DNA of 64,000 nt from Macrostomum hystrix (lineage: Eukaryota; Animalia; Platyhelminthes), in NCBI GenBank assembly GCA_950097015.1, contig CATNEN010000001.1, positions 19,964,001-20,028,000 of the forward strand, given 5' to 3'. Below are positions 3,269 through 61,638 of the stretch, one piece after another. The position numbers and the translations under genes were made by a program. Positions within the stretch are counted from its first letter, which is position 1. Each line of letters begins with the position of its first letter. The notes under the pieces were generated by a model. That model did no database searches and had not been told where the DNA came from. It worked only from the letters and a program-made list of their open reading frames with translations.

Positions 3269-3278
3269 ATTATCTTGA

Positions 3279-4012
3279 AGTAGTAGGGCGAATTATGACA
3301 CTGCCGCATTAGCACTGGGGAGATAGGAAAGCAATGTAAAAGGATAGGAGCGGGGCTTACACAGTGGAGATATGCAGGCCAATCAGGTGGGTTTGTGCAG
3401 GAGCCCATTACTGTGCTTATGACACTGCCGCATTAGCACTGGGGAGATAGGAAAGCAATGTAAAAGGATAGGAGCGGGGCCTACACAGTGGAGATATGCA
3501 GGCCAATCAGGTGGGTTTGTGCAGGAGCCCATTACTGTGCTTATGACACTGCCGCATTAGCACTGGGGAGATAGGAAAGCAATGTAAAATGATAGGAAGG
3601 AAACGAATGCACTGCAGAGATAAGAGAAATGGCTGGCCTATCTCTGTGCATTAGGGATGGATTAACACTGCAGGGATAGGAAGAGAGGCCGGCCTATCTC
3701 TTTGCGCTGGGTGATTAACACAGCAGAGATAGGAGTAGAGGGGGTGTGGGGGTGTGGGGGCGAAGCCCCCACATTTTAATTAGCCTTTAATTTTCTTGGT
3801 CACTCTGCCTCTGACAAACGGAACTCGCTGGCGCTGGCCCATTTAACCTCCAAGCAGCTGCACTGAGAGAACGTTAAATGCTACCTTGATGTCTGTGATG
3901 CAGGTCATTGCAAGGTCCTGCCTTGCTGGTCTATCTCTCTCTTTGCATTGGGGGTGGGTTAACACTGCAGGGATAGGAAGAGAGGGTCCGCCTATCATTT
4001 GGCACTGCAAAT
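3279..4012 (+). repeat. Polinton left TIR, containing ~2.4 copies of a 124-bp internal repeat
   Basis: Reverse complement of 17085-17818 with only a few mismatches, mostly at the inner end; internal units start at ~3293, 3417, 3541. Confidence 0.95.
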
Positions 4013-4289: not shown

Positions 4290-4297
4290 TATATAAG
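4290..4297 (+). promoter_or_regulatory. TATA box upstream of the PC4-like gene
   Basis: TATATAAG ~85 bp upstream of an ATG in strong Kozak context (ACCATGG, 4378-4384). Confidence 0.5.
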
Positions 4298-4380: not shown

Positions 4381-4974
4381 ATGGATCTTAGCGACGGCTT
4401 CAAAGTTCAAGTACAGGAGTATGAAGGCAATAGATTCATCGCTATCCGACGCTTCTACTCTTCTGACGGGGAGCTGAAGCCTGGAATCCCTGGATTCAAC
4501 TTGAACGTACTCCAATGGGAGAAGCTGAAGCAGCTAAGGCGCCAACTCGTGCAGGCTGCAGTCAACCGACGAAACGTCACTGCCAAGCTGGGCTCCGACA
4601 AGCTCGTAGAAGTCAAGCGAGGAGTCATCTGGCTCAAGCGACTGCCGGAGGACTGCACGGAGGATTTCCTGAGACGGAATTCGATCGAGATGACTCCCCG
4701 TCTGTGGCGAGCGCTGTGGTGCCATGTCGACCGGATCAGTAGTGAGCTGAGAGGAAAGTCACCGGAGTGCGAGTACGAGCTGGACCCTCAGGACATCAAG
4801 ACCGAGCCGGACATCGAGAATCGGGCGGGCCAACACTCTAGTGAGGATGCGGACGACGAGAAGACGCTGCTGATTTCCGAGTCAGACAACCTCCGAACCG
4901 CTTCCAGCTGCAGCCCAACTGTCGACGCCCAAAGCATTCGGCTGCATCCCACAGCAGGACAGCGACCTGTCTAA
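4381..4974 (+). CDS. PC4/Sub1-like ssDNA-binding / transcription coactivator protein, two PC4-like units; C-terminus probably frameshifted (alternative frame open to 5134)
   Basis: KVQVQEYEGNRFIAIRRFYSSDGELKPGIPGFNLNVLQWEKLKQ matches the PC4 core (VSVRDFKGKVLIDIREYW...[22 protein letters not shown]). Confidence 0.85.
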   Translation: MDLSDGFKVQVQEYEGNRFIAIRRFYSSDGELKPGIPGFNLNVLQWEKLKQLRRQLVQAAVNRRNVTAKLGSDKLVEVKRGVIWLKRLPEDCTEDFLRRNSIEMTPRLWRALWCHVDRISSELRGKSPECEYELDPQDIKTEPDIENRAGQHSSEDADDEKTLLISESDNLRTASSCSPTVDAQSIRLHPTAGQRPV

Positions 4975-5415
4975 GGATCCTTACTGGTATCAGGCCCGTG
5001 CGGCTGCGGGTCTCAGTGTCAACTGCTTGATTGGAAGCCGCAAGCGCAAACAGCCATGGCCTCTGCGTAGGAGTGATGCGATCAAGTTTCCGAAGCTGAC
5101 GGATGACTCAGATGAAAACAAGGACAACGAGTGAATTTCCAAGTGACAGTACATGCATCAAATAATTTCTAACTTCATTCATTTGGTCAAATGCGCACTC
5201 AGCTTATTATCTATCCAGCCATATTTCAGCAATATAGGCTACAGAGTAATTTTGCTCTGTGCTTCTCGCAATAGCTAATTTAACTGTCTTTTTTGGCTTT
5301 ATTTCTCGGTATATGTATCAAGACATTTTATAAACTACATTGTGTCAATACAACTTAAGAAAGTTGCTAAAGACAAAAAATAATATTGATTCTGACATCC
5401 TCTTCATGTTGGAAA

Positions 5416-6483
5416 ATGGAAAAGCTTTACTACAACCCCGCTCAGCCGGCCAGTTTCTCAGGTGCATCAAAGTTGCAGCAGCAACTAGGGAAAAATAATG
5501 AGGTGAAATCTAGAAAATACATTGAGCTGTGGTTAACTGAACAGCCCGTGCACACACTGCACAGGTCGGCTAGAAGGCGCTATCCCAGAGCACCAATCAT
5601 AGTGCGATCCATTGACGATCAATGGGAGCTTGACTTGATTGAGATGATTCCATTCGCAAAGTACAATAATGGCTACAAGTACATTCTCACATGCATTGAT
5701 GTGCTGTCTAAATGTGCATGGGCCAGGCCATTGAAAAATAAATCAGCTGCAGAAGTGCAGTCCGCATTCGAGAGCATTCTGAAATACTCAAAACGCCAGC
5801 CTCGCACAGTCCGCACAGATCAGGGGAAAGAGTTTCTTAACACTACTTTTCGCCAATTCTGCATAGAGCGGGGGATTCTGGCTTTCCCAACCAATAGTGA
5901 GCAGAAAGCAGCCATCATTGAGCGATGGAACAGAACTCTGAAGAGCAAAATTTGGCGGTATTTCACGTACAAAAGCACCCTGCACTGGGTTGACGTGCTG
6001 TCCAAGCTAGTGAAGTCCTACAACAGCACTTACCATAGAAGCATAAAAATGGCGCCAACAAGCGTCTGCAAAGAGAATGAATCTGAGGTCTGGATGAACC
6101 TGTACGATGGGAAAGCAATTGAGACAATAGAGAAGCTGAAGAAACCGAAATTCTGCGACAATCAGTTAGTGAGAATTTCCAATGCACCCAGGGTGTTCCG
6201 AAAGGGCTACAAGGCCAACTGGAGCGAGGAAGTGTACACTGTGGTGGCCAGGGCCCCGAAGCACTACCCGTACATGTACAAGATTAGAGACATGAAGGGG
6301 GAAGAGATTCGAGGCCTCTTCCATGAGCATGAGCTGCAGGCTGTTCCGGACTCACAGCGGTTGTATGTGATTGAAAAGATTTTGAAGACTGAGAAACGTC
6401 ATGGAAAAATCCGATATCTTGTGAAGTGGGCCGGCTACAACTCCACCGGGTGGGTGGATGAAAAGGACTTAAGAAAAGTCTAG
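5416..6483 (+). CDS. Polinton retroviral-like (rve) integrase with C-terminal chromodomain
   Basis: DDE triad (WELDL, RTDQGKEF, AAIIERWNRTLK); Polinton-type N-terminus YYNP..PASFSG; chromodomain YVIEKIL...RYLVKWAGY; intact ORF. Confidence 0.95.
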   Translation: MEKLYYNPAQPASFSGASKLQQQLGKNNEVKSRKYIELWLTEQPVHTLHRSARRRYPRAPIIVRSIDDQWELDLIEMIPFAKYNNGYKYILTCIDVLSKCAWARPLKNKSAAEVQSAFESILKYSKRQPRTVRTDQGKEFLNTTFRQFCIERGILAFPTNSEQKAAIIERWNRTLKSKIWRYFTYKSTLHWVDVLSKLVKSYNSTYHRSIKMAPTSVCKENESEVWMNLYDGKAIETIEKLKKPKFCDNQLVRISNAPRVFRKGYKANWSEEVYTVVARAPKHYPYMYKIRDMKGEEIRGLFHEHELQAVPDSQRLYVIEKILKTEKRHGKIRYLVKWAGYNSTGWVDEKDLRKV

Positions 6484-6520: not shown

Positions 6521-7350
6521 ATGAGAAACATTGTTATCAACAGTGAACATGCTGAAGGTACTTCTAGTGACTTTCATTTTCACCTGCCTTCACCTATTTA
6601 CTTGGATCGAAATGTGGACTATGAGGCTGGTCTGGTTGAAATCCATCTGCCTGTTGCATGGTTCAATCTTGACGAACCTTACTGCATCACTGTCTCAGTT
6701 GGAAGAGAGCACGAGGCCCTGGTTCTTCAACCTGGACGCTTTGCTAGAGTGGAGGAGCTGGTGGAGTGCCTGAATGAGCTGCTGACCAACTCTGAGTCTC
6801 TGTTCTTTGATGCGAGAAGCGACAGAGATGCTGAAATGGAGGCAGACAAATCGGGTCTGCTGGGGCGGCGTGGTAGTGCAAGAGAGTTCGCTATAAAATT
6901 TGAAATATGCAACTCAAGAACTGTTGTGCAAAACAGTACCGCGGAAGCAGAGCTGTTTCTTCCTCCTAACAAAATTCTGCAGTGGCTTGGATTCGGAAGT
7001 CAAGCAGTTACGATCCGACCTGGTCGCTTTGTGTCAAAGCATTACATTGGCTGCCCACGCACCAGCTAAATAATGTCCACTGCAGCATTGTTGAATCAAC
7101 TAACTGCAACTGCAGCTCCCTGCTGAGAACTGTTAGCATGAATTCTGAAATTGAATGGGGTTACTATCTGAGCAAAGTGTTTAAGAAAACGACATTCTTT
7201 CCGATTCAGAGAGTCAATTTCCTACAAAGTATTCGAATTCAACTGCGAGACATTTTTGACTGCACATTTATCGCGCAGACTTGCAGTCCTGTTTTGCTGA
7301 CCGTTCAGATTCGCGAAAAAAAATTCAATGAATTATCAGCAGCTGATTAG
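6521..7350 (+). pseudogene. Minor capsid (penton, PX-like), frameshifted at ~7063
   Basis: SDFHFHLPSPIYL...YEAGLVEIHLP..WFN motif; a single ORF in the second copy (56881-57690), split by a 1-nt deletion here. Confidence 0.8.
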
Positions 7351-7640
7351 GCAATACTCGGGAGCTCAAACAGGAGCTCAAAAGTCAGTACTTTATGGCT
7401 GCGGGAGTTCTCCAGGGCTTATGACGTACCAGCCTCCACCAGATGCTTCATCATCATCATTAACAGGGCTGATCAATAGCAGCCGTGGCAAAACAAAAAG
7501 TCCTAAGAAATCGAAACGAAAGCAGAAAAAAAATGAAAGAAGAATCAACTAGCCGGAACACTAGTCGCAAGAGAGGAAGGAAGACAAAGACTGGCAAGAA
7601 AAAGCTTAAGAAAAGGACTGACAAGAAAAGGAAAGCAACC
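7328..7640 (+). pseudogene. Basic Lys/Arg-rich core-like protein; frameshift in an A-run and 3' end deleted
   Basis: MNYQQLIRQYSGAQT...LYGCG plus K/R-rich tail; homologous to intact 57687-58070. Confidence 0.65.
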
Positions 7641-8587
7641 AGCGAATCGTCTCTGGGGGTGACCAGCTGTACCCGTACCATGCCTACTTCAAAGCACTGA
7701 TGGGCTCATCCGATGCCCAGCAACTCAAATTTCACCCTGCCGGTTTCTTGGAACCCGACTCAGCTGATGAGGACCACACTGAGAACCACAGGACCTCCCA
7801 ATGGAGGGAATATGTGGGACCACTCCTTAGCGACATTTTCCAGTGCCCTGTGTTTCTGCTGAACAATTTGCACCTGCACATCAAACTGGTGCCCAGTGAC
7901 GGAGCATTTGGAATCAGAGCTCCAGCCGCCAACAACACCGCCTACAGGATGGAAATATCGCACTGCATCCTCTATCTCCGCCGAGTCAAAGTTCTGCCCC
8001 ACATCAGCTTGGCTCACGAGCAGGGGCTGGCTAATCAGAATGCGCTCTACCCAATTGAGCGAACTGAAATGCAAAACTTCATCCTGCCCCAGGGAATTCA
8101 GTCAAAAAATATTGAAGGATTCACGCACGGAAAGCTCCCGAAATTCATCATGCTGGCCTTCGTCAACCACCGAGCCTTCAATGGGCACCATCATTCCAGC
8201 CCGTTCCAGTTCCAAAACTTCAACCTGAGTCAGCTTGCTCTCAAGAAAGGGGGTGAATCCATGTGCCACGGGGCATTTACACCTGAGAACAATTCGTTTG
8301 TCAGAGAATATTTGCACTACCTGAAAAGCTGTCAATCTGCGAGCCACACCAACTCGGTTCCATCGATTCCCTACCAGCTCTTCTCGAACGAGAACACTGT
8401 GTTCGCATTCGATCTGACACCCGAGGGAGCGGCTCTGTGGTACGGGCAGAAGGAGGGAAACCTGCGGCTGGAGATTCGGTTCCGACAGGCCTTGGATGAA
8501 GCCGTGTCCCTGATTGTCATGTGTGTGTATGACTCACTGATTGAGGTCACCAAGCACAGGGAGCTATTGCTGGACTATTCATCTTAA
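7641..8587 (+). pseudogene. Major capsid protein (double jelly-roll, PY), N-terminally deleted
   Basis: Near-identical to the C-terminal part of 58074-59357 (GKLPKFIMLAFV..AFNG...SPFQFQNFNLS, VFAFDLTP, GNLRLEIRF); first ~110 codons missing. Confidence 0.9.
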
Positions 8588-9132
8588 TGAAAGTTGATAT
8601 GGATGCCCTTCAGCTGCGTTCTCTTGCTAGATCCTTCCTGCCCAGCAATCGAATCTTGATAATCACCCTTTGCTTAAAGCAAAAGACCTGGATAATAAAC
8701 TGGGATGAAGGAAGAATGCGTGAGAAAATTCCCAATCACAACAGAATCAGCAGCTTCTTCTTGATAAAACACAGCGTCTCGTTTGGACACTGGGTTGCAT
8801 GTTTTGTTGGCAATGGAAATGTAGTTGAATTATTTGATTCTCTCGGTTGGAATGCACAGACTCTGAGTGCCATCCACCATTTTTTTGCTAATAAATTCAA
8901 GTTTCCTTTCCGCATGCTTTGCAATGTTAACCGAATCCAATGCAGTCAGTCGGACAAGTGCGGACTTTTCTGTCTCTATTTTGCATATCAAAGATTTCTT
9001 TTGAAGCGATCATTCGAATGGATTCTGCGAAATCTACACGTGAAAGAAAACTGCCCGTTGAATGACAGAATGCTTTGTCAGTTTGAAGCCAGCTTAAGAA
9101 AAAGAGGTTTATGGCGAAAAAGAAATAGTTGA
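8587..9132 (+). CDS. Adenain-like cysteine maturation protease
   Basis: Catalytic H/D/Q/C motifs GHWVA, ELFDSLG, RIQCSQSDKCGLFCLYF; position between capsid and ATPase. Confidence 0.92.
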   Translation: MKVDMDALQLRSLARSFLPSNRILIITLCLKQKTWIINWDEGRMREKIPNHNRISSFFLIKHSVSFGHWVACFVGNGNVVELFDSLGWNAQTLSAIHHFFANKFKFPFRMLCNVNRIQCSQSDKCGLFCLYFAYQRFLLKRSFEWILRNLHVKENCPLNDRMLCQFEASLRKRGLWRKRNS

Positions 9133-9149
9133 AATAAAGCCTAAGTGAG

Positions 9150-9803
9150 ATGGAGTCAGAAAGAGTGTACTATGATGTCCGCCTGCGACAGGGCAGCTGC
9201 ATGATGGTCTGCGGACCCACCAATGCTGGAAAGACAACCTTCGTGAAGCATCTAATACAGTACAGGGATGTATTATTCGACATCCAGCCTGGGAGAGTGC
9301 TCTGGTACTATGGAATCGCACAGCCAGCGCATGCTGAGTTGAGCAGTCTTGGTGTGCAATTGTATCAGGGATTACCCACTAACTTTGAGAGCTCATTGAT
9401 GAGCAATGCTCTGGTCATTTTTGATGACATGATTGATGAAACTTCTAACTCTGCCTCAATGCGAAATATTTTCACTGGACTCGCCCATCACCTGCCATGC
9501 TTTCTTGTAATGCTCACTCAGAATATGTTTTTCAAGGGCAAGGAGTTGCGGACCATGAGCTTGAACGCGATGTACTATGTGATCCTAAAAAACCCCAGAG
9601 ACCAGCTGCAGATCGCTGCATTGGGCAGGCAGTGCTTTCCAGAGAAGCCTGGCTTCCTGCTTGAGGTCTTCAAGCATGTCACAGCGCAGGGCAGGGGGAG
9701 CTACCTGTTTCTGGACTTTCACCCTTGCACTCCCGATGAGCTGCGAGTGCGAGCCAGAATTCTGCCCAATCAGGCCACATCTGGTTTATGCTTAAGAATA
9801 TAG
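9150..9803 (+). CDS. A32/FtsK-like DNA packaging ATPase
   Basis: Walker A GPTNAGKT, Walker B LVIFDD, LTQNMF, RTMSLNAMY...KNPRD, YLFLD; last few codons shifted versus copy 2. Confidence 0.95.
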   Translation: MESERVYYDVRLRQGSCMMVCGPTNAGKTTFVKHLIQYRDVLFDIQPGRVLWYYGIAQPAHAELSSLGVQLYQGLPTNFESSLMSNALVIFDDMIDETSNSASMRNIFTGLAHHLPCFLVMLTQNMFFKGKELRTMSLNAMYYVILKNPRDQLQIAALGRQCFPEKPGFLLEVFKHVTAQGRGSYLFLDFHPCTPDELRVRARILPNQATSGLCLRI

Positions 9804-9838
9804 GTTGAGAAATGCTATTAGCCTGAATTATTGCGACT

Positions 9839-10162: not shown

Positions 10163-10823
10163 GATGGTTCTGATCTCAAGGTCCGAGTATGAAATGCTGA
10201 GGAGGAGTGCCAAGCCCATTGAGTCTGTGAGTGACACGGCCATAAAGCAGGCACAGATGAAATGCGATGATATCCTGTTGGCCCAAGACTGCCCAGATGA
10301 TTTGAAGACAGCCCTGTACCAGAGTGCAATGCAAAGCTTGCTGGCAAAGCGAAAGCAGACAGGAAAGGAAGCTGCATCAGAAGAGAAGAAAGCGAAGTTG
10401 ATGAAGGCTGAGATGCCTCAAAGAAGCTGGGAGGAAAAGATCTGCCAGTCAGTGCCACAGAAGCTCAAACCGAGGGCTCGGAGTCTATGGGCCATCCTAT
10501 CTGACAGCCAGTCTGCTATCCGGGTGTCCGATAATGGAGAGGTGAACATTTCTGGGAACTCGATTCCTAACTCAAACATTGTCGATTTGATTCTGCACAC
10601 AGTGAAGGACTCAAAAAGTTCTGGTCAGCCTGTTGGATGGCCCGCTTTCAGTGACTTGCTTCGCCAAAAAAATCTCAATGTGCCTATGTCAGCTGTTGGA
10701 AAATCTGTACATCAAGAAATTTTTGATACAATTGAAGATGCACAGCCTTCACTCAAAGGATTGGGCAACAGGTCTGCATGGCTGAGGTTGAACAGGGGGA
10801 GAAAACAGTATTTAAGAAAGTAA
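10146..10823 (+). CDS. Conserved Polinton/Maverick protein of unknown function
   Basis: GEV.ISG..IPNSNIVDLI...P.GW..F...L...NVP motif; C-terminal LKGLG putative protease site; homolog at 60913-61601. Confidence 0.7.
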   Translation: MHKFNEMVLISRSEYEMLRRSAKPIESVSDTAIKQAQMKCDDILLAQDCPDDLKTALYQSAMQSLLAKRKQTGKEAASEEKKAKLMKAEMPQRSWEEKICQSVPQKLKPRARSLWAILSDSQSAIRVSDNGEVNISGNSIPNSNIVDLILHTVKDSKSSGQPVGWPAFSDLLRQKNLNVPMSAVGKSVHQEIFDTIEDAQPSLKGLGNRSAWLRLNRGRKQYLRK

Positions 10824-10864
10824 CGATCATCGAATTATGCCGGTTTCGAGGCACTCGCTTGAGC

Positions 10865-11716
10865 ATGAACTACATAGACATTCAGGGCTTCCCGTGCGAT
10901 GGAGAGAAGGATGACTTCATCGTGAAGGAGTTGGCGATCCTTGAAGTCAGGAAAGGAAGCTATCACCTTTCACACCACGTGTACGCTCCACCGTATGATT
11001 GGCAGAGAGTTTCACCTGACATGCGAATGTACTACAAACAGCTTTCGAAAAATCTACATAAATTCAAGTGGACCGATGGAACCCGGCCATATTTGCAATT
11101 AGCTGACGACATTGTGAGCATTGGTAGCGGCGTCAACTGGACAAGCGGAGAGAAAAAATCGATTTTTCTAACTGAGTTGTTGGGCAGACTGGTCTACAAC
11201 TTAGACGATTTGGTCTCACATTCTAACAAAGACTCTGATACCGCATGTGCAGTGAGCAACTCATTGCTGTACTACAGCTGGCTGAAACCAACAGCTTGCA
11301 TCAACTTAAGAAGCGACAAGTGCTCATGGCATAGAAGCTCAAGCAATTGCAGTAGCAGCAGCAGCCAGACTTGCAATCAGAATGATGATCAAAGGCGCTG
11401 CAACCTTGAGAATCACCAACCTGGTTGGTGGAGTGGATCTGAGACTGACTGGAGGCAGAGGCGCCCAGCTTCCTCTAAGGGAGCTGGCTCTCAGCATGGC
11501 TTATGTGATCTACCGACCCGTGTGGCCCAGAGAGCTCATCAAGCAGATGCGGAATCCCAGAGTTACCCTACTGCTCTACCCTACTGGGCAACTGAGCATC
11601 TGTGGCGCAAAGAGCTACGCCGACTCGGTCAGGGCTGCCCGGCGCTTCGTCGCTATGCTGCATCGCCGAGTGCCGGCTCAGCTGCTGCCTCGTCAAGCTT
11701 TCGGTGTGAGGATTAA
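10865..11716 (+). CDS. DEDD/DnaQ-like nuclease-fold protein; C-terminal extension overlaps the TBP-like gene
   Basis: YIDIQGF...FIVKELAI...APPY....H...W..G..PY pattern typical of Maverick DEDD-like ORFs; ExoI motif reads DxQ rather than DxE. Confidence 0.65.
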   Translation: MNYIDIQGFPCDGEKDDFIVKELAILEVRKGSYHLSHHVYAPPYDWQRVSPDMRMYYKQLSKNLHKFKWTDGTRPYLQLADDIVSIGSGVNWTSGEKKSIFLTELLGRLVYNLDDLVSHSNKDSDTACAVSNSLLYYSWLKPTACINLRSDKCSWHRSSSNCSSSSSQTCNQNDDQRRCNLENHQPGWWSGSETDWRQRRPASSKGAGSQHGLCDLPTRVAQRAHQADAESQSYPTALPYWATEHLWRKELRRLGQGCPALRRYAASPSAGSAAASSSFRCED

Positions 11717-11957
11717 GACTATCACTGCGCATGGAAAACTTGCAATTCAAAATGTGCTAAATCTAACAAGTTTGTCACATCTGCTACCAAATGCTGAATA
11801 TGAACCCGAATCATTTTCTGCTTTAATTTTCAAATTACGATTTTGCAAGTGTCTGCTTTTTCACAGTGGCTCATTTGTTCTAAGCGGTGCTCGATCTTTG
11901 AATCAGCTACGAACCGACAGCATCCGTCTGCGCGAATTAGTTTTTTCTCTATTATAA
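11382..11957 (+). CDS. TATA-binding protein (TBP)-like protein encoded by the Polinton
   Basis: Two TBP repeats: ITNLVGGVDL...MRNPRVTLLLYPTGQLSICGAKS..DSVRAARRF and NAEYEPESFSALIFKL...LLFHSGSFVLSGARS (cf. TBP [34 protein letters not shown] / YEPELFPGLIY...LLIFVSGKVVLTGAK). Confidence 0.9.
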   Translation: MMIKGAATLRITNLVGGVDLRLTGGRGAQLPLRELALSMAYVIYRPVWPRELIKQMRNPRVTLLLYPTGQLSICGAKSYADSVRAARRFVAMLHRRVPAQLLPRQAFGVRIKTITAHGKLAIQNVLNLTSLSHLLPNAEYEPESFSALIFKLRFCKCLLFHSGSFVLSGARSLNQLRTDSIRLRELVFSLL

Positions 11958-12636: not shown

Positions 12637-15600
12637 TTAACCAAACCTGATGCGCTTCTGCTGGCCATGGAAATCCTGGGTCAGAGCATAGTGGCCATAG
12701 GGAAGACTTCGATTGCTGCTCAGCCATACTCGCTTGTCTTCCCAAACTGAGAGGCTTCGCTTCTCCAATACTGATGTGTAAACGCTGTGCTTCTTTGAGA
12801 CAATTGTGGTCATGGCAACCGTCTGCTCCTGTTTCGAATTGAGCGCGGCAGCGTAGTCCGCATGAGTGATTTGAAGCTTCACAACAGATTGTTTCACGCC
12901 CTTGGCAGTTTTTTTGGCTTTCGCAGTTGAACTCTCAGCGGGAAGAAATGAATACAGCTTTGGCCGCAGCAGGACCCATTCTTGGTAGGTACCACCGCAG
13001 GATTCATCTTTGACGCAGCCAAGCTTGCCTTTCAGTTCCTCGGAGTAGTGCGGATGGTCTCGGGGATAGTTCGACGAATCAAGGATATTTTCCTCTCTGA
13101 GCTTCGGGATCACATGCGATGTGAGCTCGTGATTTCTGAAGGCGAGAAAAACGAGTCCGTGTCGCCACCGCATACCATCATGTCCTTGGAGCCGTCTGGT
13201 TCACAGAAAAGCGGCCGGAGCTTATCATACAGCAGGCTGTACATGCACATCTTCGACAAGTCGAGCACTGCCTGGCCGACGAAAATGGCCTTGTCAAGCT
13301 TTACTTTGTCTTTCCTGAACTGAAAGATGGATAGATTTTCATTTACAATAAAAAATCCGGTGCAATTTGGTCGAGAGGAATAAGTTTCAACTTGAGTAGC
13401 GCTTGTGTAGATGCGCACATCACACCGCTTGCGCACGTTCTCCATCGTCTTTCCGAACAAAGAATTGTTCTTTAGTTTGTAGAAATCCTTGCTAAAATCG
13501 GATGTTGCAAGTGCCCTCTTGCTATTATTGCTTGCAATGTACGAAGCAAATATTTTCTTCTGGTTGAATTCAATCATCTTGAGAATTGACTTGATCTTCA
13601 TTCCGTGCTGCAGGTAGAAGCGCAAGATGGTGCTGTGGACAATATAGCCATCCTTGTCCGAACAGGTCAGCAGAAGTTTCTCTGTTGCAGAGAACTTAAA
13701 ATCGACATTGCCTGAGCGCTGCTCCGCGATTTGCTTCCACAATTCCAGCATAAACGGTGAAAACTGGTCAACCTGCGGCTTAGATTTCCTTGGCGCAAAA
13801 GGTAATTCCTCTGTCACATCATGAATATCGGCTGGATATTCAAGGTCAACCTGCACGAGATAGGCTACTTCAGCTTCAGGATCGAGAGATATGAACTTTT
13901 TGGCGTCCCAAGACTGCAGTTCCTTTTCTGTCACCCACCTGAATCCGCTGCATGGAAGCGATTGAGAAAGTGCGTGTCCGTACAAGTTGTTCATGTCAAT
14001 CGGCATGAGACTCACGCAGTCCTGCTGCTCATCATAGTCAGGCAAACTTTGGTTGTTTGCTTTAACATGGTGCACATTAACGAAAGACATGCCACCTCTA
14101 ATGCCTTGTTCGAATAAATGGTACATGTCAGGGTCTGTTAGCTGTTCGAGCACAACACCAGTTGATTTGAGAGCAGAGTCGTAAGACAGACCAGGTGTAG
14201 TTAGATAGTGCACTGGATCGAGCCCATCTTCAGATAGACTGGCGTGACGAAATGCCTCAAAAATGTCTGCTAACTGGCGCACATCCATTTCCAGGTAGGC
14301 TAGCATGTAGTCTCGCAGACTACGACATTCGAATGCGGCCCATGCTGCCTTTGCTCGATGGTATTCCTCATCAGAAATCGCACAGTCGGTAAGACGGTTG
14401 AAAAATGCATTTTTCGGTGGCAGACTAGTCTGTTCAAGAATGTTGAACTCGGTCAGGAAATCATACGGAAAGACTCCCTTTTGGCGAATAATGTCTTTTG
14501 AAAGCAGAGGCCTAGACTCTAGCAGCTGCAGAGTCAGTTTACAGTCGTTCTCTGAAAGATTGGAAAACAAATTTGCCAAACTTCCCTTTAGAAAGCAGAG
14601 AATCGATGAACTGAATGGTAAACATTAGTGGCAGTGTCTTCCCGTTTTTTGTGTAGGTGCCAACAGGAAACTCCACCCGAAGTGATAGATAGCGCTCCGA
14701 AGTCTGTGGGACAACATTGAGTTTCCAATTTGGCATGCTACCAAGTGCGGTAGAAAGAAGAAGATGCAAATCGTAACCGCCCAAATTGTGAAAAATGACA
14801 GGCAAAAACCTGCGACGAAGCTGAGCCCGCATGTTGCACTCCTGGCACGCGGCTCCTTTGAACTGCCCCGTCAGGTGATCATGGTCAAAATGTTTGTCAG
14901 CGGAACTGCTGAACTCAGATTGACAGTTGTGGCATGATGTGGCGTCATTGAAATCTTTCATGTCCGTTAGAGAAGATTTATCCGCTGCTTGGTGACTGTG
15001 CACCCGGTTCCACTGAAAGATTTCCCTGGAAAGCTTTTCAAGGGAACTGAGAAAAGCAAGGATGCACTCCTTGGGATCAGCATTGCAAAATGATTGGTAC
15101 ATGTCTGCTTTAGGACGAAGTTCAGGCCCCTTCATGTACGCTCTGGAAACCACTAAGTAGGCTGCTGCACATGGCTCATGTTGAGCGATCAGATCGGCAG
15201 AGTCTGGTTTTTGTTTCAAAATGGCTTCCAGGTCGGCATAGGTCACAAATGGTGGACTGATTGTCTTCTGAAATTCCTTGAACTTGATTTCGTTTGCTCC
15301 AGGAACAGGAAGGACTTCCTTGATGGGATTTTCAGAAGCGATTTGGCATTCTCTGCTGTGCTCTAGAAGTCTCTCGCTGCAGTAGAATGAGGTCAAGCAT
15401 CTGGTGCACCACTTTCTCATGGCAAGGCCGGCGCGGCTGTTCATCAGCCTGTCAAAGTTATTAATTGCACACCAGTGCTCTAATCCATAGCTGCCGCTGA
15501 CCAACAGAAGCATTAGATGAGTTCGACCTCCTGGCTCATGCTTGAGACGACGGAGCAAGCTCACGTTACCTCGCTGCCATAGAAATGCAGAAATGCAAAT

Positions 15601-16326
15601 TCCTGGATTGCTAGACTCAACGAGATCAATGTCAGCGACACTGACGGGCATGGAGATTCCAGCGAAGTCAAGCTCGTTCAATCATTCATCGTAAGACGAC
15701 AGTCTGCCAGGCGATTTTTTTATCTTTGGATCGGCACTGTGCAATGCGGCAAGACAGGCGTACATGAAGCAGTCGTTGCCGGTACTTGGCGGATTGACGA
15801 CAGCTTTCTTGTTTTTCAGACTGGCTGGGAGGTTAAATCTGGATGTTCTACCCTGGCGGAATCGAATCGGATTGTACCTAGCTAGATGTATATCCAGGAA
15901 GTTTATCTGAGTTAGTGTCCAACCACTACCATTCGTGTTCAACATGCTAACACTCTCACTTCTGGGTGCCCTTGGTCTAATAATGCCATTGATCACCTGA
16001 CTCAGTACATTGGACCGTTGCTTAGCAGCGACCACCTCAGTAGCCTGTTGCTTTGCCGCAGCCATAACTAATCGGCGGAAAGAGCGCGCTGCTTCTTCGT
16101 TGCCAGGCAGCAGCTGATGCCCGCGGTGCCGATTGATCTTGGAGTTTTTTGAGCATTTGCCAAGTCCACGGAAAGGATCTATTTCGGAGCACTGCCAGCA
16201 GACTGTCCATCTTGAAAGATTGGTGCATCTTGAATGCCGGTCGGCCTGCAGTCCTCCTTGCTTGCACTTCTTGCAGTCAGTGCACACCTCATAGTGCCAA
16301 GTGGATGCCATTATATTTATTTTCAA
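12637..16326 (-). pseudogene. Protein-primed family B DNA polymerase (pPolB) with vOTU-like and HNH/EndoVII-like domains; one in-frame stop (15682-15684) and two frameshifts (~14580, ~13145)
   Basis: GSGW, AVVNP...NDCF, DHDHLTGQFKGAACQECN, VIFHNLGGYD, FIDS, KGVFPY, GIRGGMS, DMNNLYG, KLKNNSLFGKTMENVRKR, GDTDS, LRPKLYS, AKGV, DKR, LPYGH. Confidence 0.95.
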
Positions 16327-17084: not shown

Positions 17085-17818
17085 ATTTGCTGTGCCAAGT
17101 GATAGGCGGAACCTCTCTTCCTATCCCTGCAGTGTTAACCCACCCCCAATGCAAAGAGAGAGATAGACCAGCAAGGCAGGACCTTGCAATGACCTGTATC
17201 ACAGACATCAAGGTAGCATTTAACGTTCTCTCAGTGCAGCTGCTTGGAGGTTAAATGGGCCAGCGCCAGCGAGTTCCGTTTGTCAGAGGCAGAGTGACCA
17301 AGAAAATTAAAGGCTAATTAAAATGTGGGGGCTTCGCCCCCACACCCCCACACCCCCTCTACTCCTATCTCTGCTGTGTTAATCACCCAGCGCAAAGAGA
17401 TAGGCCGGCCTCTCTTCCTATCCCTGCAGTGTTAATCCATCCCTAATGCACAGAGATAGGCCAGCCATTTCTCTTATCTCTGCAGTGCATTCGTTTCCTT
17501 CCTATCATTTTACATTGCTTTCCTATCTCCCCAGTGCTAATGCGGCAGTGTCATAAGCACAGTAATGGGCTCCTGCACAAACCCACCTGATTGGCCTGCA
17601 TATCTCCACTGTGTAGGCCCCGCTCCTATCCTTTTACATTGCTTTCCTATCTCCCCAGTGCTAATGCGGCAGTGTCATAAGCACAGTAATGGGCTCCTGC
17701 ACAAACCCACCTGATTGGCCTGCATATCTCCACTGTGTAAGCCCCGCTCCTATCCTTTTACATTGCTTTCCTATCTCCCCAGTGCTAATGCGGCAGTGTC
17801 ATAATTCGCCCTACTACT
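17085..17818 (-). repeat. Polinton right TIR
   Basis: Reverse complement of 3279-4012, ends CTACTACT followed by TSD TCTTGA. Confidence 0.95.
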
Positions 17819-17833
17819 TCTTGACTCTGACTA

Positions 17834-56474: not shown

Positions 56475-56781
56475 CGCAGGATAACCTTTACCAGTATGTA
56501 AGGACAACACTGGCAATTGATTTTGACACTATTTATCACAGGATAAAAATCACAGAATAAAAATTGCAGGATAAAAACCACAGGATAAAAATCACAGGAT
56601 AGTCTCAACCTATCTGTAAGGATAACACTATCAATTGATTTCGACACTATTTATCACAGGATAAAAATCACAGAATAAAAATTGCAGGATAAAAATCACA
56701 GGATAGTCTCAACCTATCTGTAAGGATAACACTATCAATTGATTTCGACACTATTTATCACAGGATAAAGGATCACAGGAT
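56475..56781. repeat. Tandem repeat related to the 90-bp array, abutting the truncated integrase
   Basis: GGA.AACACT..CAATTGATTT.GACACTATTTATCACAGGATAAA at ~56501, 56620, 56723. Confidence 0.88.
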
Positions 56782-56847
56782 CTGGTCAAGTGGGCTGGCT
56801 ACAACTCCACTGGGTGGGTGGAGGAGAAAGACTTAAGAAAAGTGTAG
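56782..56847 (+). pseudogene. Integrase chromodomain C-terminal remnant
   Basis: LVKWAGYNSTGWVEEKDLRKV*, matching the end of 5416-6483 with mostly synonymous changes. Confidence 0.9.
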
Positions 56848-56880
56848 GTAAACTATGAATATTATATTATTATAAACTCT

Positions 56881-57690
56881 ATGATGAGATGTATTGTCAT
56901 CAGCAGCAGTCATGCCGAAGGTACTCCTACTGACTTTCATTTTTACCTTCCTTCACCTATTTATCTTGATCGAAATGTGGACTATGAGGTTGGTCTGGTG
57001 GAACTCCATCTGCCTGCTACATGGTTCAATGTTGACGAACCTTACTGCTTCACTGTCTCAGATGGAACAGAGCATGAAGCCCTGGTTCTTCAACCCGGAC
57101 GCTTTGGCAGAGTCGAGGAGCTGGTTGAGTCTCTGAATGATCTACTAGCTAATTCCGAGTTCTATGATGCCAGAAGCGAGCGAGATGCTGAGATGGAGGC
57201 TGACGAATCAGGTCTTCTGGGGCGTCGAGGTGATGCTAAATACACTGGAATAAGATTCGACATTCATAACTCGAGAGCCGTAGTGCAGAACAACACAGTG
57301 CAAGCAGAGCTGCATCTTCCACCTAGCAAGATTCTGCAGTGGCTTGGATTCGGCAACCAGGGAGCAAAGATTCGACCCGGGCGGCTTGTCTCAGAGCACT
57401 GCATTGGCTGCCCGCGCACCAATTTAATTAATGTGCACTGCAGCATCGTTGAGTCAAGCAATTGCAACGGCAATTCACTGTTGAGAACAGTTCGAATGAA
57501 ACCTGATGCTGAATGGGGAAACTATGTGAGCAAAGTTTTAAAGAAGGCAATCTACTTTCCGATCCCGAGGATCCATTCTTTACACAGCCTTCGAGTTCAA
57601 CTGCGAGACATTTTTGGCAGCCTTCTGATTGCCCATTCCTGCAGTCCCGTTCTGCTAACAGTTCAGATTCGGGAGAAAAGAATTCAATGA
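56881..57690 (+). CDS. Minor capsid protein (penton, PX-like)
   Basis: TDFHFYLPSPIYL...YEVGLVELHLP.TWFN...INVHCSIVE...SLLRTV...IYFPI...LRVQLRD. Confidence 0.82.
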   Translation: MMRCIVISSSHAEGTPTDFHFYLPSPIYLDRNVDYEVGLVELHLPATWFNVDEPYCFTVSDGTEHEALVLQPGRFGRVEELVESLNDLLANSEFYDARSERDAEMEADESGLLGRRGDAKYTGIRFDIHNSRAVVQNNTVQAELHLPPSKILQWLGFGNQGAKIRPGRLVSEHCIGCPRTNLINVHCSIVESSNCNGNSLLRTVRMKPDAEWGNYVSKVLKKAIYFPIPRIHSLHSLRVQLRDIFGSLLIAHSCSPVLLTVQIREKRIQ

Positions 57691-58070
57691 ATTACCAGCA
57701 GCTCATTCGGCAGTATTCGGGTGCGCAAACTACCAAACAACCTGCACTGTACGGCTGCGGGAGCTCACCGGGACTCATGACGTTCCAGCCTCCACCGGCT
57801 GTTTCATCAACGTTAGCTGCTGCTGATCTCATGAATGGCAACCTTGCCAAGAAGTCTTCTGTGAAATCAAAGCGAAAGATAAGAAAGTTGTCGAAAAGCA
57901 CTAGTAATCATAGTAACGGCAGTAAGAAAAAGAAGAGATCAAGAAGGAAGCAGGCAAGGTCAAGCAAGAAAGAGCTTAAGAAGAAGTCCGGGAAGACCAA
58001 GAAAGCAACCAAAAATAAACGAAAAGTCAGCAGGAAAACTGTGAAGCGCGTACTGGACTCTCTGTCATAG
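57687..58070 (+). CDS. Basic core-like protein with putative adenain cleavage site
   Basis: LYGCG motif and a very K/R/S-rich C-terminal half; located between penton and MCP. Confidence 0.7.
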   Translation: MNYQQLIRQYSGAQTTKQPALYGCGSSPGLMTFQPPPAVSSTLAAADLMNGNLAKKSSVKSKRKIRKLSKSTSNHSNGSKKKKRSRRKQARSSKKELKKKSGKTKKATKNKRKVSRKTVKRVLDSLS

Positions 58071-58073
58071 ACA

Positions 58074-59357
58074 ATGGCTTACGGATTCAACCCCAGGCTC
58101 GACTTGTTCAAGACACCCGTGCTGCAGACTTGCATTGCGAAATCCACCTATGTTGACATTCATCCCGTGAATTCCATTGTTGCAAACTCACCCATTGAAT
58201 TTGACTGCCACCAATCAGCTGACGAGTACACTGATTTAGTGAACTCATTTCTCTACATTCGTTGCCGCATTGTGAGGCTGAATGGAGCATTGATGAGGGA
58301 GGATGAGCTGGGTGAGGGTGGAGTTATCGCAGACAGCAGAGACAGCAATGTGCATCCGGAAAATTTTGTGTTGCCCACAGCCTTCTCAGATGTAATTGTT
58401 AGCATTAACCAGCGAATCGTCTCTGGGGGTGACCAGCTGTACCCGTACCATGCCTACTTCAAAGCACTGATGAGCTCATCAGATGCCCAGCAACTCAAAT
58501 TTCACCCTGCCGGTTTCCTGGAACCCGACTCAGCTGATGAGGACCACACTGAGAACCACAGGACCTCCCAATGGAGGGAATATGCGGGACCACTCCTTAG
58601 CGACATTTTCCAGTGCCCTGTGTTTCTGCTGAACAATTTGCACCTGCACATCAAACTGGTGCCCAGTGATGGAGCATTTGGAATCAGAGCTCCAGCCGCC
58701 AACAACACCGCCTACAGGATGGAAATATCGCACTGCATCCTCTATCTTCGCCGAGTCAAAGTTCTGCCCCACATCAGCTTGGCTCACGAGCAGGGGCTGG
58801 CTAATCAGAATGCGCTCTACCCAATTGAGCGAACTGAAATGCAAAACTTCATCCTGCCCCAGGGAATTCAGTCAAAGAATATTGAAGGATTCACACATGG
58901 AAAGCTCCCGAAATTCATCATGCTGGCCTTCGTCAACCACCGAGCCTTCAATGGGCACCATCATTCCAGCCCGTTCCAGTTCCAAAACTTCAACCTGAGT
59001 CAGCTTGCTCTCAAGAAAGGGGGTGAATCCATGTGCCATGGGGCATTTACACCGGAGAACAATTCGTTTGTGAGAGAGTATTTGCACTTCCTGAAAAGCT
59101 GTCAATCTGCGAGCCACACCAACTCGGTTCCGTGGATTCCCTACCAGCTCTTCTCGAACGAGAACACTGTGTTCGCATTCGATCTGACGCCCGAGGGAGC
59201 GGCTCTGTGGTACGGGCAGAAGGAGGGAAACCTGCGGCTGGAGATTCGGTTCCGACAGGCCTTGGGTGAAGCCGTGTCCTTGATTGTGATGTGCGTGTAT
59301 GACTCACTGATTGAGGTCACCAAGCATTGGGAGCTATTGCTGGTTTATTCGTCTTGA
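58074..59357 (+). CDS. Major capsid protein (double jelly-roll, PY)
   Basis: LDLF..P.LQT.I...YVDIHP....PIEF...YTDL.NSFLY, YPYHAYF, GKLPK, PFQFQNFNLS, FAFDLTP, GNLRLEIRF; intact 427 aa. Confidence 0.93.
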   Translation: MAYGFNPRLDLFKTPVLQTCIAKSTYVDIHPVNSIVANSPIEFDCHQSADEYTDLVNSFLYIRCRIVRLNGALMREDELGEGGVIADSRDSNVHPENFVLPTAFSDVIVSINQRIVSGGDQLYPYHAYFKALMSSSDAQQLKFHPAGFLEPDSADEDHTENHRTSQWREYAGPLLSDIFQCPVFLLNNLHLHIKLVPSDGAFGIRAPAANNTAYRMEISHCILYLRRVKVLPHISLAHEQGLANQNALYPIERTEMQNFILPQGIQSKNIEGFTHGKLPKFIMLAFVNHRAFNGHHHSSPFQFQNFNLSQLALKKGGESMCHGAFTPENNSFVREYLHFLKSCQSASHTNSVPWIPYQLFSNENTVFAFDLTPEGAALWYGQKEGNLRLEIRFRQALGEAVSLIVMCVYDSLIEVTKHWELLLVYSS

Positions 59358-59905
59358 TGAATATTGGCATGGATGCCCTTCAACTGTTTTCTCTTGCTAG
59401 ATCCTTCCTGCCCAGCAGTCAAATCCTGATAGTCACACTTTGCCCGAAGCAGAAGACCTGCACAATAAACCGAGGTGGCAGAACGCATGTGGAAATTCCC
59501 CATTACAACAAAATTACATTCTTCTTGATAAAGCACAGCGTCTCGTTTGGTCACTGGGTTGCTTGTTACTTTGGTAATGGAAATACAGTTGAATTATTTG
59601 ATTCTCTCGGTTGGAATGCACAAACTCTTAGTGCTATTCACAATTTTCTTGCAAATAAATTAAAGTTTCCATTCCGCAGGCTTTGTAATGTTAATCGAAT
59701 CCAATGCTGCCACTCAGACAAGTGCGGAATTTTCTGTCTCTATTTTGCTTATCAAAGATTGATTTCGAAAAGTTCATTTGAATTGGTTCTGCTAAGCCTA
59801 CACGTGAAGAAAAACTGTCCATTGAATGATAGAGTGCTTTGCCAGTTTGAAGCCAGCTTAAGAAAAAGAGTGTTTCGGAGCAAAAAAATAAAATTGTTGC
59901 AATAA
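59357..59905 (+). CDS. Adenain-like cysteine protease
   Basis: GHWVA, ELFDSLG, RIQ...SDKCGIFCLYF. Confidence 0.92.
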   Translation: MNIGMDALQLFSLARSFLPSSQILIVTLCPKQKTCTINRGGRTHVEIPHYNKITFFLIKHSVSFGHWVACYFGNGNTVELFDSLGWNAQTLSAIHNFLANKLKFPFRRLCNVNRIQCCHSDKCGIFCLYFAYQRLISKSSFELVLLSLHVKKNCPLNDRVLCQFEASLRKRVFRSKKIKLLQ

Positions 59906-59917
59906 AGCCTGAAAGAC

Positions 59918-60565: not shown

Positions 60566-60605
60566 GAATAGGTTGAAAATGTATCTTGCCCGAATTACTG
60601 CAACA

Positions 60606-60911: not shown

Positions 60912-60912
60912 G

Positions 60913-61601: not shown

Positions 61602-61638
61602 TCGAATTCTGCTGGTTTCAAGGCACGGTCGCTTGAGC

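Follow-up and report, generated by a model that had tools for sequence, protein, structure and literature searches.

The TBP mimics of the beta- and gammaherpesviruses, EBV BcRF1, KSHV ORF24 and HCMV UL87, read TATT late promoters (PMC4893493). They are large multi-domain proteins that act in a six-protein complex, are about 10% identical to TBP and have proven binding. The window analysed here, a 64,000-nt stretch of Macrostomum hystrix DNA, contains a Polinton-borne TBP-like gene whose product can be compared with these mimics. Both are TBP-fold proteins used without a viral RNA polymerase, with structural genes behind a non-canonical TATA box (PMC4893493), the promoter role in the element being suggested by its motif. 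The DNA face is more polar in both (PMC12529657). KSHV ORF24, however, lacks the TFIIB-binding acidic residues (PMC12529657), whereas the element TBP, a core of 190 aa with nothing added, retains them, belongs to a 14.5-kb element and is predicted, not proven, to bind. By analogy, the element TBP appears to work like the herpesvirus vTBP late system without being a member of it.

Cellular TBP, TRF2 and archaeal TBP share the two-repeat saddle fold with the element TBP (Z 15-16, rmsd ~3 Å) at ~25-30% identity; unlike them, the element TBP is tail-less, sits on a mobile element and falls outside the cellular clades. Nucleocytoviruses and mirusviruses also have TBP-fold proteins, at 9-19% identity and in far larger viruses, and among the BFVD matches of the element TBP are proteins named as TBPs from Heterosigma akashiwo virus, Terrestrivirus and Marseillevirus. 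In nucleocytoviruses, TBP works alongside an RNA polymerase that the virus itself encodes. Starrett et al. listed a TBP gene in the legend to their Fig. 5 among MELD viruses with an adintovirus-like PolB (Starrett et al., 2021; PMC8502044); there too, the carrier of the TBP-like gene is a midsize dsDNA virus related to Polintons. It appears there once, as a legend abbreviation within a section on non-animal datasets, and no promoter box, mechanism or test for selection accompanies it. The earlier note had left open whether such a gene was already reported: the label was, in that legend, but a literature search covering few subscription papers or Repbase entries found no paper on TBP in animal Polintons and nothing beyond the legend. 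TBP, TATA and PC4 were not found as terms in the main texts of four Polinton papers.

A defective Polinton and its TBP-like gene

Element 1 spans 3279-17818, with 734-nt terminal inverted repeats (TIRs) that differ at 4 mismatches (Table 1). It has in common with Polintons, Mavericks and adintoviruses TIRs beginning AGT, a 6-bp target-site duplication (TSD), a pPolB and an rve integrase, and also an ATPase, an adenain-like protease and a double-jelly-roll capsid (the last from a low-confidence model); a TBP, a PC4 and a shared promoter-like box set it apart from usual Polintons. The element is defective, with its pPolB split into four reading-frame pieces and its capsid gene truncated. The capsid gene of copy 2 (58074-59357) encodes 427 aa, and its low-confidence model (pLDDT 46.5) had only double-jelly-roll capsids among the matches listed, with a best E of 1.3e-11; a PDB sequence search with the capsid gene gave 0 matches. 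Pfam matches of the ATPase and protease are weak and below the cut-off, and tblastn links both to better-matching genes of locus L001, from a second TBP-bearing family. The L001 ATPase matches Pox_A32 at E 6.8e-6, and the element 1 ATPase is 26-31% identical to those of L001 and L005-L007.

From their position, ORF 6521 and its counterpart ORF 56881 are putative minor capsid genes, of the single-jelly-roll kind in Polintons, neither having a match in Pfam or PHROG, and the small basic ORF 7328 is presumably a core protein. A PHROGs search with six element ORFs gave nothing useful. Homologs of ORF 10146 are fused to TBP in two Macrostomum lignano gene models (P0008, P0011), and in three of six records from that species a TBP segment is joined to homologs of the genes that neighbour it in the element. 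The 3' 110 codons of ORF 10865 overlap the TBP gene out of frame and are unconstrained in their own frame, dN/dS being 2.6 there vs 0.19 in the TBP frame. ESM Atlas placed ORF 10865 near unnamed arthropod-rich clusters (0.95-0.96) and a Maelstrom cluster (0.88), the latter a lead only.

Table 1. Features of element 1 and of the second copy, in window positions
Feature	Position	Strand	Remarks
Left TSD TCTTGA	3273..3278		
Left TIR	3279..4012	+	734 nt, begins AGTAGT
Canonical TATA box TATATAA, 5' of PC4-like gene	4290..4296	+	putative promoter
PC4-like gene (general Pol II coactivator / ssDNA-binding)	4381..4974	+	Pfam PC4 E 2.2e-10
Box CTTAAGAA, 5' of integrase	5354..5361	+	intergenic
Retroviral-type integrase with chromodomain	5416..6483	+	Pfam rve E 5.9e-14, Chromo E 7.9e-5
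Box 5' of ORF 6521	6468..6475	+	exact in copy 2 (56832)
ORF 6521, putative minor capsid gene	6521..7069	+	frame shorter than copy 2 counterpart 56881-57690
Box TTTAAGAA, 5' of small basic ORF 7328	7180..7187	+	one mismatch in copy 2
Small basic ORF, putative core protein	7328..7552	+	broken in copy 1
Box 5' of major capsid gene	7605..7612	+	exact in copy 2 (57975)
Major capsid gene	7700..8587	+	tblastn; 5' part absent in copy 1
Adenain-like maturation protease	8587..9132	+	Pfam Peptidase_C5 E 0.0013, under curated cut-off
Box 5' of ATPase	9093..9100	+	exact in copy 2 (59857)
A32/FtsK-like packaging ATPase	9150..9803	+	Pfam Pox_A32 E 0.0045, weak
Box 5' of ORF 9839	9791..9798	+	exact in copy 2 (60561)
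ORF 9839, 107 aa	9839..10162	+	no family assigned
ORF 10146, 225 aa	10146..10823	+	no family assigned; overlaps ORF 9839; no own box
Box TTTAAGAA, 5' of ORF 10865	10811..10818	+	exact in copy 2 (61583)
ORF 10865	10865..11716	+	conserved N-terminal domain (dN/dS 0.2)
Box CTTAAGAA, 5' of TBP gene	11305..11312	+	exact in copy 2 (62079)
TBP-like gene, copy 1	11382..11957	+	191 aa; core saddle only, N-terminal tail absent
Protein-primed PolB with endonuclease VII domain	12637..16311	-	DNA_pol_B_2 E 3.6e-11, Endonuclease_7 E 4.4e-8
Right TIR	17085..17818	-	
Right TSD TCTTGA	17819..17824		
Second, truncated Polinton fragment, integrase end to TBP	56780..62722	+	~5.9 kb; six exact boxes
TBP-like gene, copy 2	62156..62722	+	188 aa; 81% identity with copy 1 (alignment)

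The TBP-like gene is real, has the TBP fold, is under purifying selection and is part of the Polinton. The earlier note had described an intronless ORF of ~190 aa with both TBP repeats inside a Polinton bounded by TIRs and TSDs, and the ORF, the Pfam matches and the element ends agree with that description. PF00352 (TBP) matched two stretches in each ORF, with E 4.3e-24 for copy 1 and 2.9e-23 for copy 2, and the two direct repeats are present at 84.6 bits vs a cut-off of 22.9. The AlphaFold/Foldseek check proposed beside the Pfam search recovered the fold as well as the family: the copy 1 AlphaFold2 model (pLDDT 77.8) matched TBPs in Foldseek with a best E of 1.9e-12 and TM 0.73-0.77, corresponding to the saddle, and VIA-align gave a best Z of 16.3 (rmsd 2.7 Å, 170 residues) with the first non-TBP row at Z 7.0. 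At the DNA level the two copies are 93% identical over a 240-column block containing the first repeat and 73% identical over the block with the second, yet YEPESFSALI and LLFH.GSFVLSGARS are present in both, as had been noticed from the letters. Purifying selection, which had been suggested on that ground, is borne out by a dN/dS of 0.26 overall and 0.16 across the 77 3' codons that lie outside the overlap (Fisher p 5e-9).

The second copy had been presented as an ortholog in a second Polinton; the ORF is there, but it lies in a fragment and not in a full second element. No matching TIR, TSD, pPolB or PC4 was found for the fragment within the window, nor a pPolB 3' of it in the last 1.3 kb. 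Identity to element 1 is uneven, between 71 and 99% depending on the part of the fragment, and dS between the copies rises from 0.10 in the capsid gene to 0.22 in the 5' half of the TBP gene and 1.9 in its 3' half. Such patchwork identity is best read as recombination, and the proposal of two cleanly diverged subfamilies was rejected on this variation in dS.

The shared box and the DNA-contact face

A box, YTTAAGAA, lies 47-147 nt 5' of eight gene starts, that of the TBP gene included. Between 4100 and 12000 it occurs 8 times on the plus strand and 0 times on the minus strand against a shuffle mean of 0.33, a count of 8 being reached in 0/300 shuffles; the figures are 6, 0 and 0.28 (0/300 shuffles) in copy 2, where 6 of the 7 sites match exactly. 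The windows before gene starts make up 15.5% of the block, the box having initially been spotted by eye, with the limits of 40-150 nt set once it had been seen. In an unbiased count CTTAAGAA was the top-ranked 8-mer, with 6 occurrences vs 0.11 expected in copy 1 and 5 vs 0.11 in copy 2. The pPolB strand (minus) has no box, and the protease, whose start adjoins the capsid stop codon, has none of its own. A near-variant of the box, GTTAAGAG, follows the canonical TATA box ~62 nt 5' of the ATG of the PC4-like gene. The box also occurs between genes, and its codon phase varies. In a script-based look at five coding sites, in-frame Leu-Arg-Lys/Ser codons near gene ends precede it at four, so that coding bias may contribute to it. 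The box and the TBP may also simply co-occur, the Polintons compared all carrying a TBP.

Residues of the element TBP were compared in yeast numbering, anchored on A100 and P191. E141 and E143 align to yeast E186 and E188 of the acidic TFIIB-binding stirrup and are kept in 6/6 window-family members; E186 and E188 are also kept in 7/7 members of the L001 family and in 31/33 and 33/33 mini-TBPs, respectively. These mini-TBPs are proteins without DNA, whose Polinton origin is assumed from size, shared residues and tree position. We take E186 to be the second TFIIB-binding acidic residue; a literature search on the role of E186/E188 found nothing. PMC12529657 names E188 for TFIIB binding and prints E184 for the other residue.

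Three of the four DNA-intercalating aromatics are retained in the element TBP, the phenylalanines F190 and F207 being kept and F116 being replaced by Y. F99 is P and a W directly precedes it, in a part of the model where pLDDT is <50; this leaves N-terminal intercalation uncertain. Among the base-reading asparagines N69 is kept, and N159 is T; N159T and V161T are found in 6/6 window-family TBPs vs N and V in 15/15 cellular TBPs, and N159T with V161S/T is common to the 33 distant mini-TBPs. P191, which limits TATA position 1 to T (PMC1636458), is S in 6/6, and position 1 of the box is C or T. In all, the changes relative to cellular TBP are F99P, A100R, V122S, T124C, N159T, V161T, P191S and V203K, and N69, V71, L114, E186, E188, F190, L205, F207 and V213 are retained. 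The DNA face thus looks re-tuned, not decayed.

Proposed transcription scheme and competing readings

Going by these sequence features, the element TBP probably, though by no means securely, reads its own TATA variant YTTAAGAA and recruits host TFIIB and Pol II. The tail-less protein would bind the box before eight element genes; the box would act as a core promoter, and the TBP bound to it would bring in host TFIIB and RNA polymerase II. In a first step, host factors would read the PC4 gene (canonical TATA) and pPolB (no box), and in a second the integrase, capsid, packaging and TBP genes would be read through the viral TBP. Because the TBP gene carries the box, this would create positive feedback, and its dependence on its own box needs a first trigger outside the proposed scheme. 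The boxless protease gene and ORF 10146 would be co-expressed with the gene that each abuts.

The earlier note had offered two roles, redirecting host Pol II to viral promoters or sequestering host initiation factors. Redirection is favoured, because a private box is common to the element's genes and because the protein has retained the glutamates that dock TFIIB despite changes at DNA-contact residues, and sequestration is the less favoured of the two. As a full alternative, the viral TBP would be a decoy that soaks up TFIIB or partners and dampens host transcription, with the box a weak promoter for host TBP or for another host or element factor (PC4, ORF 9839/10146). A decoy would equally require the invariant acidic TFIIB loop, and the changes at DNA contacts F99, V122, T124, N159, V161 and P191 would suit it. 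Crystal structures of wild-type cellular TBP are recorded for single TATA variants carrying T at position 2 or G at position 6 (PDB 1qna, 1qn5), and G at position 6 is tolerated (PMC1636458), so that host TBP, accepting such single changes, might read the box weakly. The box, however, combines two or three departures from canonical TATA, and the second TBP-bearing family seems to have another box. The DNA-face changes are also fixed in the family, with N159T and V161S/T recurring in the 33 mini-TBPs, and F190, F207, N69 and L205 are kept, all of which makes the decoy unlikely. Should the viral TBP instead read the box through another machine, this could be Pol III with a Brf-type factor, a viral complex with the ORFs and PC4, or a helper-virus polymerase. 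This is quite unlikely, since the targets are long protein-coding genes, which suit Pol II. A single TBP surface is reported to serve TFIIB and the Pol III relatives of TFIIB, the element encodes PC4 and three unassigned ORFs, and the herpesvirus TBP mimics require five partners (PMC4893493); but the element TBP keeps its acidic residues and has no extra domain, unlike KSHV ORF24 (PMC12529657).

The box might alternatively be an RNA-level signal (trans-splice acceptor, poly(A) or translation re-initiation) for a polycistronic transcript, the role of the TBP being unrelated. The genes lie head to tail on one strand, the box is often at the end of the upstream gene and contains AG and an AAGAAA-like run, and spliced-leader trans-splicing occurs in flatworms. 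No pyrimidine tract precedes the AG, however (2-11 pyrimidines in the 20 nt 5' of the box, 14 sites); boxes 9093 and 11305 lie well inside the upstream frame, where cleavage would precede the stop, and box 5354 is intergenic. Such a signal is very unlikely, and poly(A) or splice acceptor was rejected as the main explanation on the missing tract and the boxes inside upstream frames. That the gene is a host TBP paralogue or retrocopy riding as a passenger is extremely improbable: it is intronless and at the edge of the gene block, but it is under purifying selection, has the same neighbours in other copies and its own box, is 26-29% identical to canonical TBP and groups outside cellular TBP/TRF2 (AU p 0.035). 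The retrocopy was rejected as largely refuted by selection, tree position and conserved neighbours.

The finding bears on how Polinton/Maverick capsid genes are expressed and on whether such elements ever form particles in animals. A dedicated TBP and a defined 8-bp box make Polinton transcription testable with oligos and reporters, and the box would predict the late gene set and serve as a sequence tag for transcribed copies in RNA data. The scheme would stretch the viral-TBP strategy from viruses of 100 kb and more to 15-kb endogenous elements.

Relatives and a second TBP-bearing family

The window-family TBPs (P0001-P0004) are 26-29% identical to canonical eukaryotic TBP (P0013). In trees they group with the TBPs of other-family Polintons and with unnamed metagenomic mini-TBPs, outside cellular TBP/TRF2, on long branches and among rows that include no identified flatworm host TBP and no labelled nucleocytovirus or mirusvirus TBPs. 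The eukaryote TBP/TRF group forms its own side of a 54-row tree with support 97/90, this subset having been picked after a 163-row tree was seen, from which 19 redundant or fused rows had been removed beforehand. Unnamed rows were called "archaeal" or "eukaryotic" by their identity to anchor sequences and their place in the tree. An arrangement with the window family joined to the eukaryote group is rejected only modestly by the AU test (the p value given above). As the trees place element TBPs apart from cellular TBP, the element TBP is likely an old viral lineage and not a recent capture, and the earlier suggestion that this lineage had captured a host factor finds no support in that form. 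Viral contigs were scanned with four queries, namely the family alignment, P0019, P0012 and the alignment of the L001 family; none of the 18, 20, 13 and 17 pattern matches, respectively, was a relative.

The second Polinton family comprises four metagenome loci (L001, L005-L007), whose TBPs are 22-26% identical to the window TBP; three of seven loci were set aside, L002 and L003 because they look prokaryotic and L004 because it is too short. The YTTAAGAA box occurs 0 times in the four loci. ATAGGA, a box chosen post hoc in loci that are related, is enriched in L001 (8 vs 2.8; 3/300 shuffles) and L006 (8 vs 1.3; 0/300) and weak in L005 (14/300) and L007 (101/300). The L001 family therefore seems to use a different box. 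Tentatively, and with less than even confidence, we suggest that animal Polintons share an ancient viral clade of tail-less TBPs (N159T, V161S/T), each member co-evolved with a private TATA variant, YTTAAGAA here and YATAGGA in the L001 family, so that one 190-aa protein would be a 15-kb virus's orthogonal promoter code on host Pol II. This would be, if true, the smallest known viral early-to-late switch, and the clade would form a natural library of altered-specificity TBPs. If protein-box pairing holds across families, these would be natural altered-specificity TBPs with the TFIIB surface kept, useful for TATA read-out studies and as orthogonal promoter parts. The TBP of L002, one of the loci set aside, falls among archaeal-type rows.

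TBP genes, their host element and selection

Both TBP-like ORFs match the Pfam TBP profile twice (see the table), and their proteins are 81% identical in alignment. Sequence matches of the copy 1 protein in the PDB comprise 35 distinct sequences, every one named TBP or TBP fusion. Using an AlphaFold2 model built from six family members (pLDDT 77.8; residues 1-5 and 42-58 below 50), TBPs were retrieved by Foldseek (best E 1.9e-12) and by VIA-align (Z 16.3, rmsd 2.7 Å over 170 residues; first non-TBP row at Z 7.0). The two-repeat TBP fold proposed in the earlier note is thus borne out by profile matches in both ORFs and by a structure match for the copy 1 model.

Features of the sequenced stretch, with coordinates
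Feature	Position	Strand	Remarks
Polinton element 1	3279-17818		734-nt TIRs, 4 mismatches; TCTTGA duplicated either side
PC4-like general Pol II coactivator gene	4381-4974	+	Pfam E 2.2e-10
ORF 10865, conserved part	10865-11380	+	dN/dS 0.2; N-terminal DxQGF motif
TBP-like gene, copy 1, 191 aa	11382-11957	+	Pfam TBP matched twice, E 4.3e-24
TBP-like gene, copy 2, 188 aa	62156-62722	+	Pfam TBP matched twice, E 2.9e-23
Stop-free ORF 10865/TBP overlap, about 110 codons	11382-11716; 62156-62487		Both copies; selection in TBP frame only
Dispersed 126-nt repeat	3098-3223; 17834-17959; 26794-26919		First two flank the Polinton insertion
14.8-kb stretch	19415-34257		1441-nt inverted repeats (98%), internal 20-nt minisatellites, no long ORF; possibly a non-autonomous DNA element
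Gypsy-type LTR retrotransposon coding region	35004-39070	-	gag zinc knuckle, RT, RNase H, integrase
Three unassigned ORFs (130, 187, 104 aa) upstream of copy 2	52744-54256	-	No Pfam match in two scanned

The claim that the TBP lies inside a Polinton bounded by TIRs and a target-site duplication holds for copy 1 and not for copy 2, a 5.9-kb fragment in which no TIR, PC4 or pPolB was found within the window. By Pfam, element 1 encodes PC4, an rve integrase with chromodomain and pPolB, with weak adenain and A32 matches. This copy is defective because its pPolB is split into four pieces and its capsid gene lacks the 5' part. The capsid gene of copy 2 gave a poor model (pLDDT 46.5), with only double-jelly-roll capsids among the matches listed; the labels minor capsid and core protein are presumptive. 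The PC4-like gene is a second basal transcription factor within one Polinton. The insertion site of element 1 seems to lie within or beside another repeat.

Purifying selection on the TBP, suggested in the earlier note, was confirmed by one pairwise comparison of the copies, in which dS of the TBP 3' part is close to saturation. The dN/dS ratio is far below 1, at 0.26 over 188 codons (Fisher p 7e-11), 0.19 in the 111 codons overlapping the upstream ORF 10865 (p 4e-5) and 0.16 in the 77 free codons (p 5e-9). Read in the upstream ORF's own frame, the overlap gives a dN/dS of 2.6, which assigns its constraint to the TBP. In the ESM Atlas, ORF 10865 falls among unnamed arthropod-rich clusters, with a Maelstrom (piRNA pathway) cluster at 0.88 as a lead only; an anti-silencing role or a nuclease fold is possible for its product.

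Divergence between the copies is uneven, with dS of 0.10 in the capsid gene, 0.22 in the ATPase, 0.22 in the TBP 5' half and 1.9 in its 3' half. DNA identity between 7637-11957 and 58407-62722 forms a patchwork ranging over 71-99% (capsid gene 97-99%, protease 84-85%, TBP 5' half 93%, TBP 3' half 73%). This pattern suggests recombination with a breakpoint inside the TBP, and what had been described as two diverged subfamilies fits a recombinant mosaic better.

Relatives and origin of the TBP

A word-indexed search for the TBP returned 5 of 523 candidates: M. lignano PAA46374.1 (78%), a second record from that species and three Logan proteins without names (71-75%), which points to a Macrostomum-like flatworm as the probable host. 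When 1.84 billion representatives were searched exhaustively with a profile, five matches reached E <=1e-30 and general TBPs came after them. Among six M. lignano records, three gene models fuse the TBP segment to element-gene homologs (capsid, ATPase, ORF 10146 or ORF 10865), two hold the TBP alone and one is fused to unrelated sequence. A metagenome scan reduced 111 pattern matches to seven loci. Four of these (L001, L005-L007) represent another Polinton family, and each of the four has pPolB, ATPase and TBP; three extend into integrase, and L001 additionally holds capsid and protease. Their TBPs are 22-26% identical to the window TBP and lie between the ATPase block and integrase; the family also shows a long basic N-terminal frame. 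The other three loci were set aside, two being of prokaryotic look and one too short. No relative was found in four viral-contig scans. A large unnamed tail-less TBP family of about 170-200 aa (mini-TBPs; P0180-P0206, P0032, P0041, P0047, P0087, P0089, P0108) comes from metagenome and Logan assemblies, several members on 9-19 kb contigs.

Over full length, the window family (both TBPs and close relatives) is 26-29% identical to canonical eukaryotic TBP, and TRF2-like or archaeal anchors are no closer. A 163-row quick tree and a 54-row mixture-model tree, its rows picked after the first, both place the window family together with the L001-family TBPs and seven tail-less TBPs without names (95/89) and separately from eukaryotic TBP/TRF2 (97/90), in a set with long branches, with inferred labels on unnamed rows, and without flatworm TBP or labelled giant-virus TBP. 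P0012 and P0019 cluster with the window family there (support 100/97). Forcing the window family with eukaryotic rows was modestly rejected (AU p 0.035). N159 (yeast numbering) is T in 6/6 window-family members and 33/33 mini-TBPs and S, A or C in seven L001-family rows; V161 is replaced by S or T throughout the three groups, and cellular TBPs keep N159 and V161 in 15/15. Substitution at these positions of the central DNA-contact strand, common to the three groups, is an independent hint at origin. A recent capture from the host is unlikely given the tree, the AU result and the low identity, and descent from an old viral lineage accounts better for the data.

A shared octamer and the DNA-binding surface

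Within 4100-12000 the coding strand contains the octamer YTTAAGAA eight times and the opposite strand not once (shuffle mean 0.33; eight reached in 0/300); the counts in copy 2 are six and none (mean 0.28; 0/300). The pPolB strand has none, and the whole window has 19 against 8.8 expected. CTTAAGAA ranks top of all 8-mers in both copies. All eight sites lie 47-147 nt ahead of gene starts: integrase, putative minor capsid, small basic ORF, major capsid, ATPase, ORF 9839, ORF 10865 and TBP. Such upstream intervals make up 15.5% of the block, giving a chance of about 3e-7 for 8/8, the interval having been chosen afterwards. In copy 2, six of seven counterparts are exact and one has a single mismatch. 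Three of 11 plus-strand genes are without a box. Two of them, the protease and ORF 10146, adjoin the preceding gene or overlap with it; the third, PC4, has a box near-variant and a canonical TATATAA upstream. This TATA box, at 4290, is the sole canonical one upstream of any element gene.

PMC12529657 names four phenylalanines, two asparagines and an acidic TFIIB pair of TBP, E188 and one printed as E184, and describes KSHV ORF24 as without the acidic residues, whereas the window family keeps them. Numbering was anchored on A100 and P191 via plant TBP (spacing 91, as expected). In alignment the TBP retains N69, V71, L114, E186, E188, F190, L205, F207 and V213, with F116 replaced by Y; F99P, A100R, V122S, T124C, N159T, V161T, P191S and V203K occur in 6/6 members. 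We take the second acidic residue to be E186, from this alignment. According to PMC1636458, it is the C-terminal TBP repeat that recognises the box's 5' half, Pro191 bars all but T at position 1, and G fits positions 3 and 6. Relative to TATAAAAG, the element box has C/T at position 1, T at 2 and G at 6, and the C/T would fit the loss of Pro191. PDB titles with wild-type TBP on single variants T(-30) and G(-26), and the poorly modelled F99 loop, count against a box-specific fit.

Proposed mechanism, rivals and precedents

We conclude that the gene is a genuine TBP, carried by the element and under selection, and that a private box matches it. Its fold, its context, the selection on it, the statistics of the box and the residue pattern are established, and promoter function, binding, recruitment and timing are what we infer. 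On the reading we consider probable, element TBP would bind YTTAAGAA ahead of the integrase, capsid, packaging and TBP genes and there bring in TFIIB and Pol II from the host, with PC4 and pPolB read first by host factors; the box ahead of TBP would give positive feedback. A TBP acting as decoy, with the box read by the host, is unlikely, and use of another polymerase or a multi-protein complex is rather more so. Less probable again is an RNA-level signal. One of the box sites falls between genes; those in coding sequence occupy more than one codon phase, Leu-Arg being commonest, with TTA-AGA at 5 of 25 such pairs where codon counts predict fewer than one. Splice-acceptor and poly(A) readings are opposed by the failure to find a pyrimidine tract before the box AG and by several sites well within the upstream frame. 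That the TBP is a passenger is very improbable.

Functional precedent comes from herpesvirus mimics of TBP, which read TATT late promoters (PMC4893493); the element TBP would work alike, yet is no member of that system. TBP folds are present in giant viruses too. In the portions consulted, Starrett et al. 2021 (PMC8502044) make a single mention of TBP, in the legend of Fig. 5, for MELD viruses with adintovirus-like PolB, and the supplement text, including extra adintovirus maps, holds no TBP or TATA. TATA, TBP and PC4 are absent from the main texts of PMC10748475, PMC11161782, PMC11131425 and PMC8097293, and matches in PMC12220804 are confined to its reference list; what was seen of PMC13134418 and PMC4041446 is background only. 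The literature listings showed no publication describing TBP in Polintons of animals; subscription papers, Repbase or further supplements may contain one.

An ancient Polinton TBP clade with lineage-specific TATA variants co-evolving with TBP is a tentative possibility. The four L001-family loci hold no YTTAAGAA. ATAGGA is in excess in L001 (8 against 2.8; 3/300 shuffles) and L006 (8 against 1.3; 0/300), with 14/300 in L005 and 101/300 in L007; it is a post hoc lead for a box of that family. Five of the eight L001 ATAGGA sites lie 54-95 nt upstream of an ORF start.
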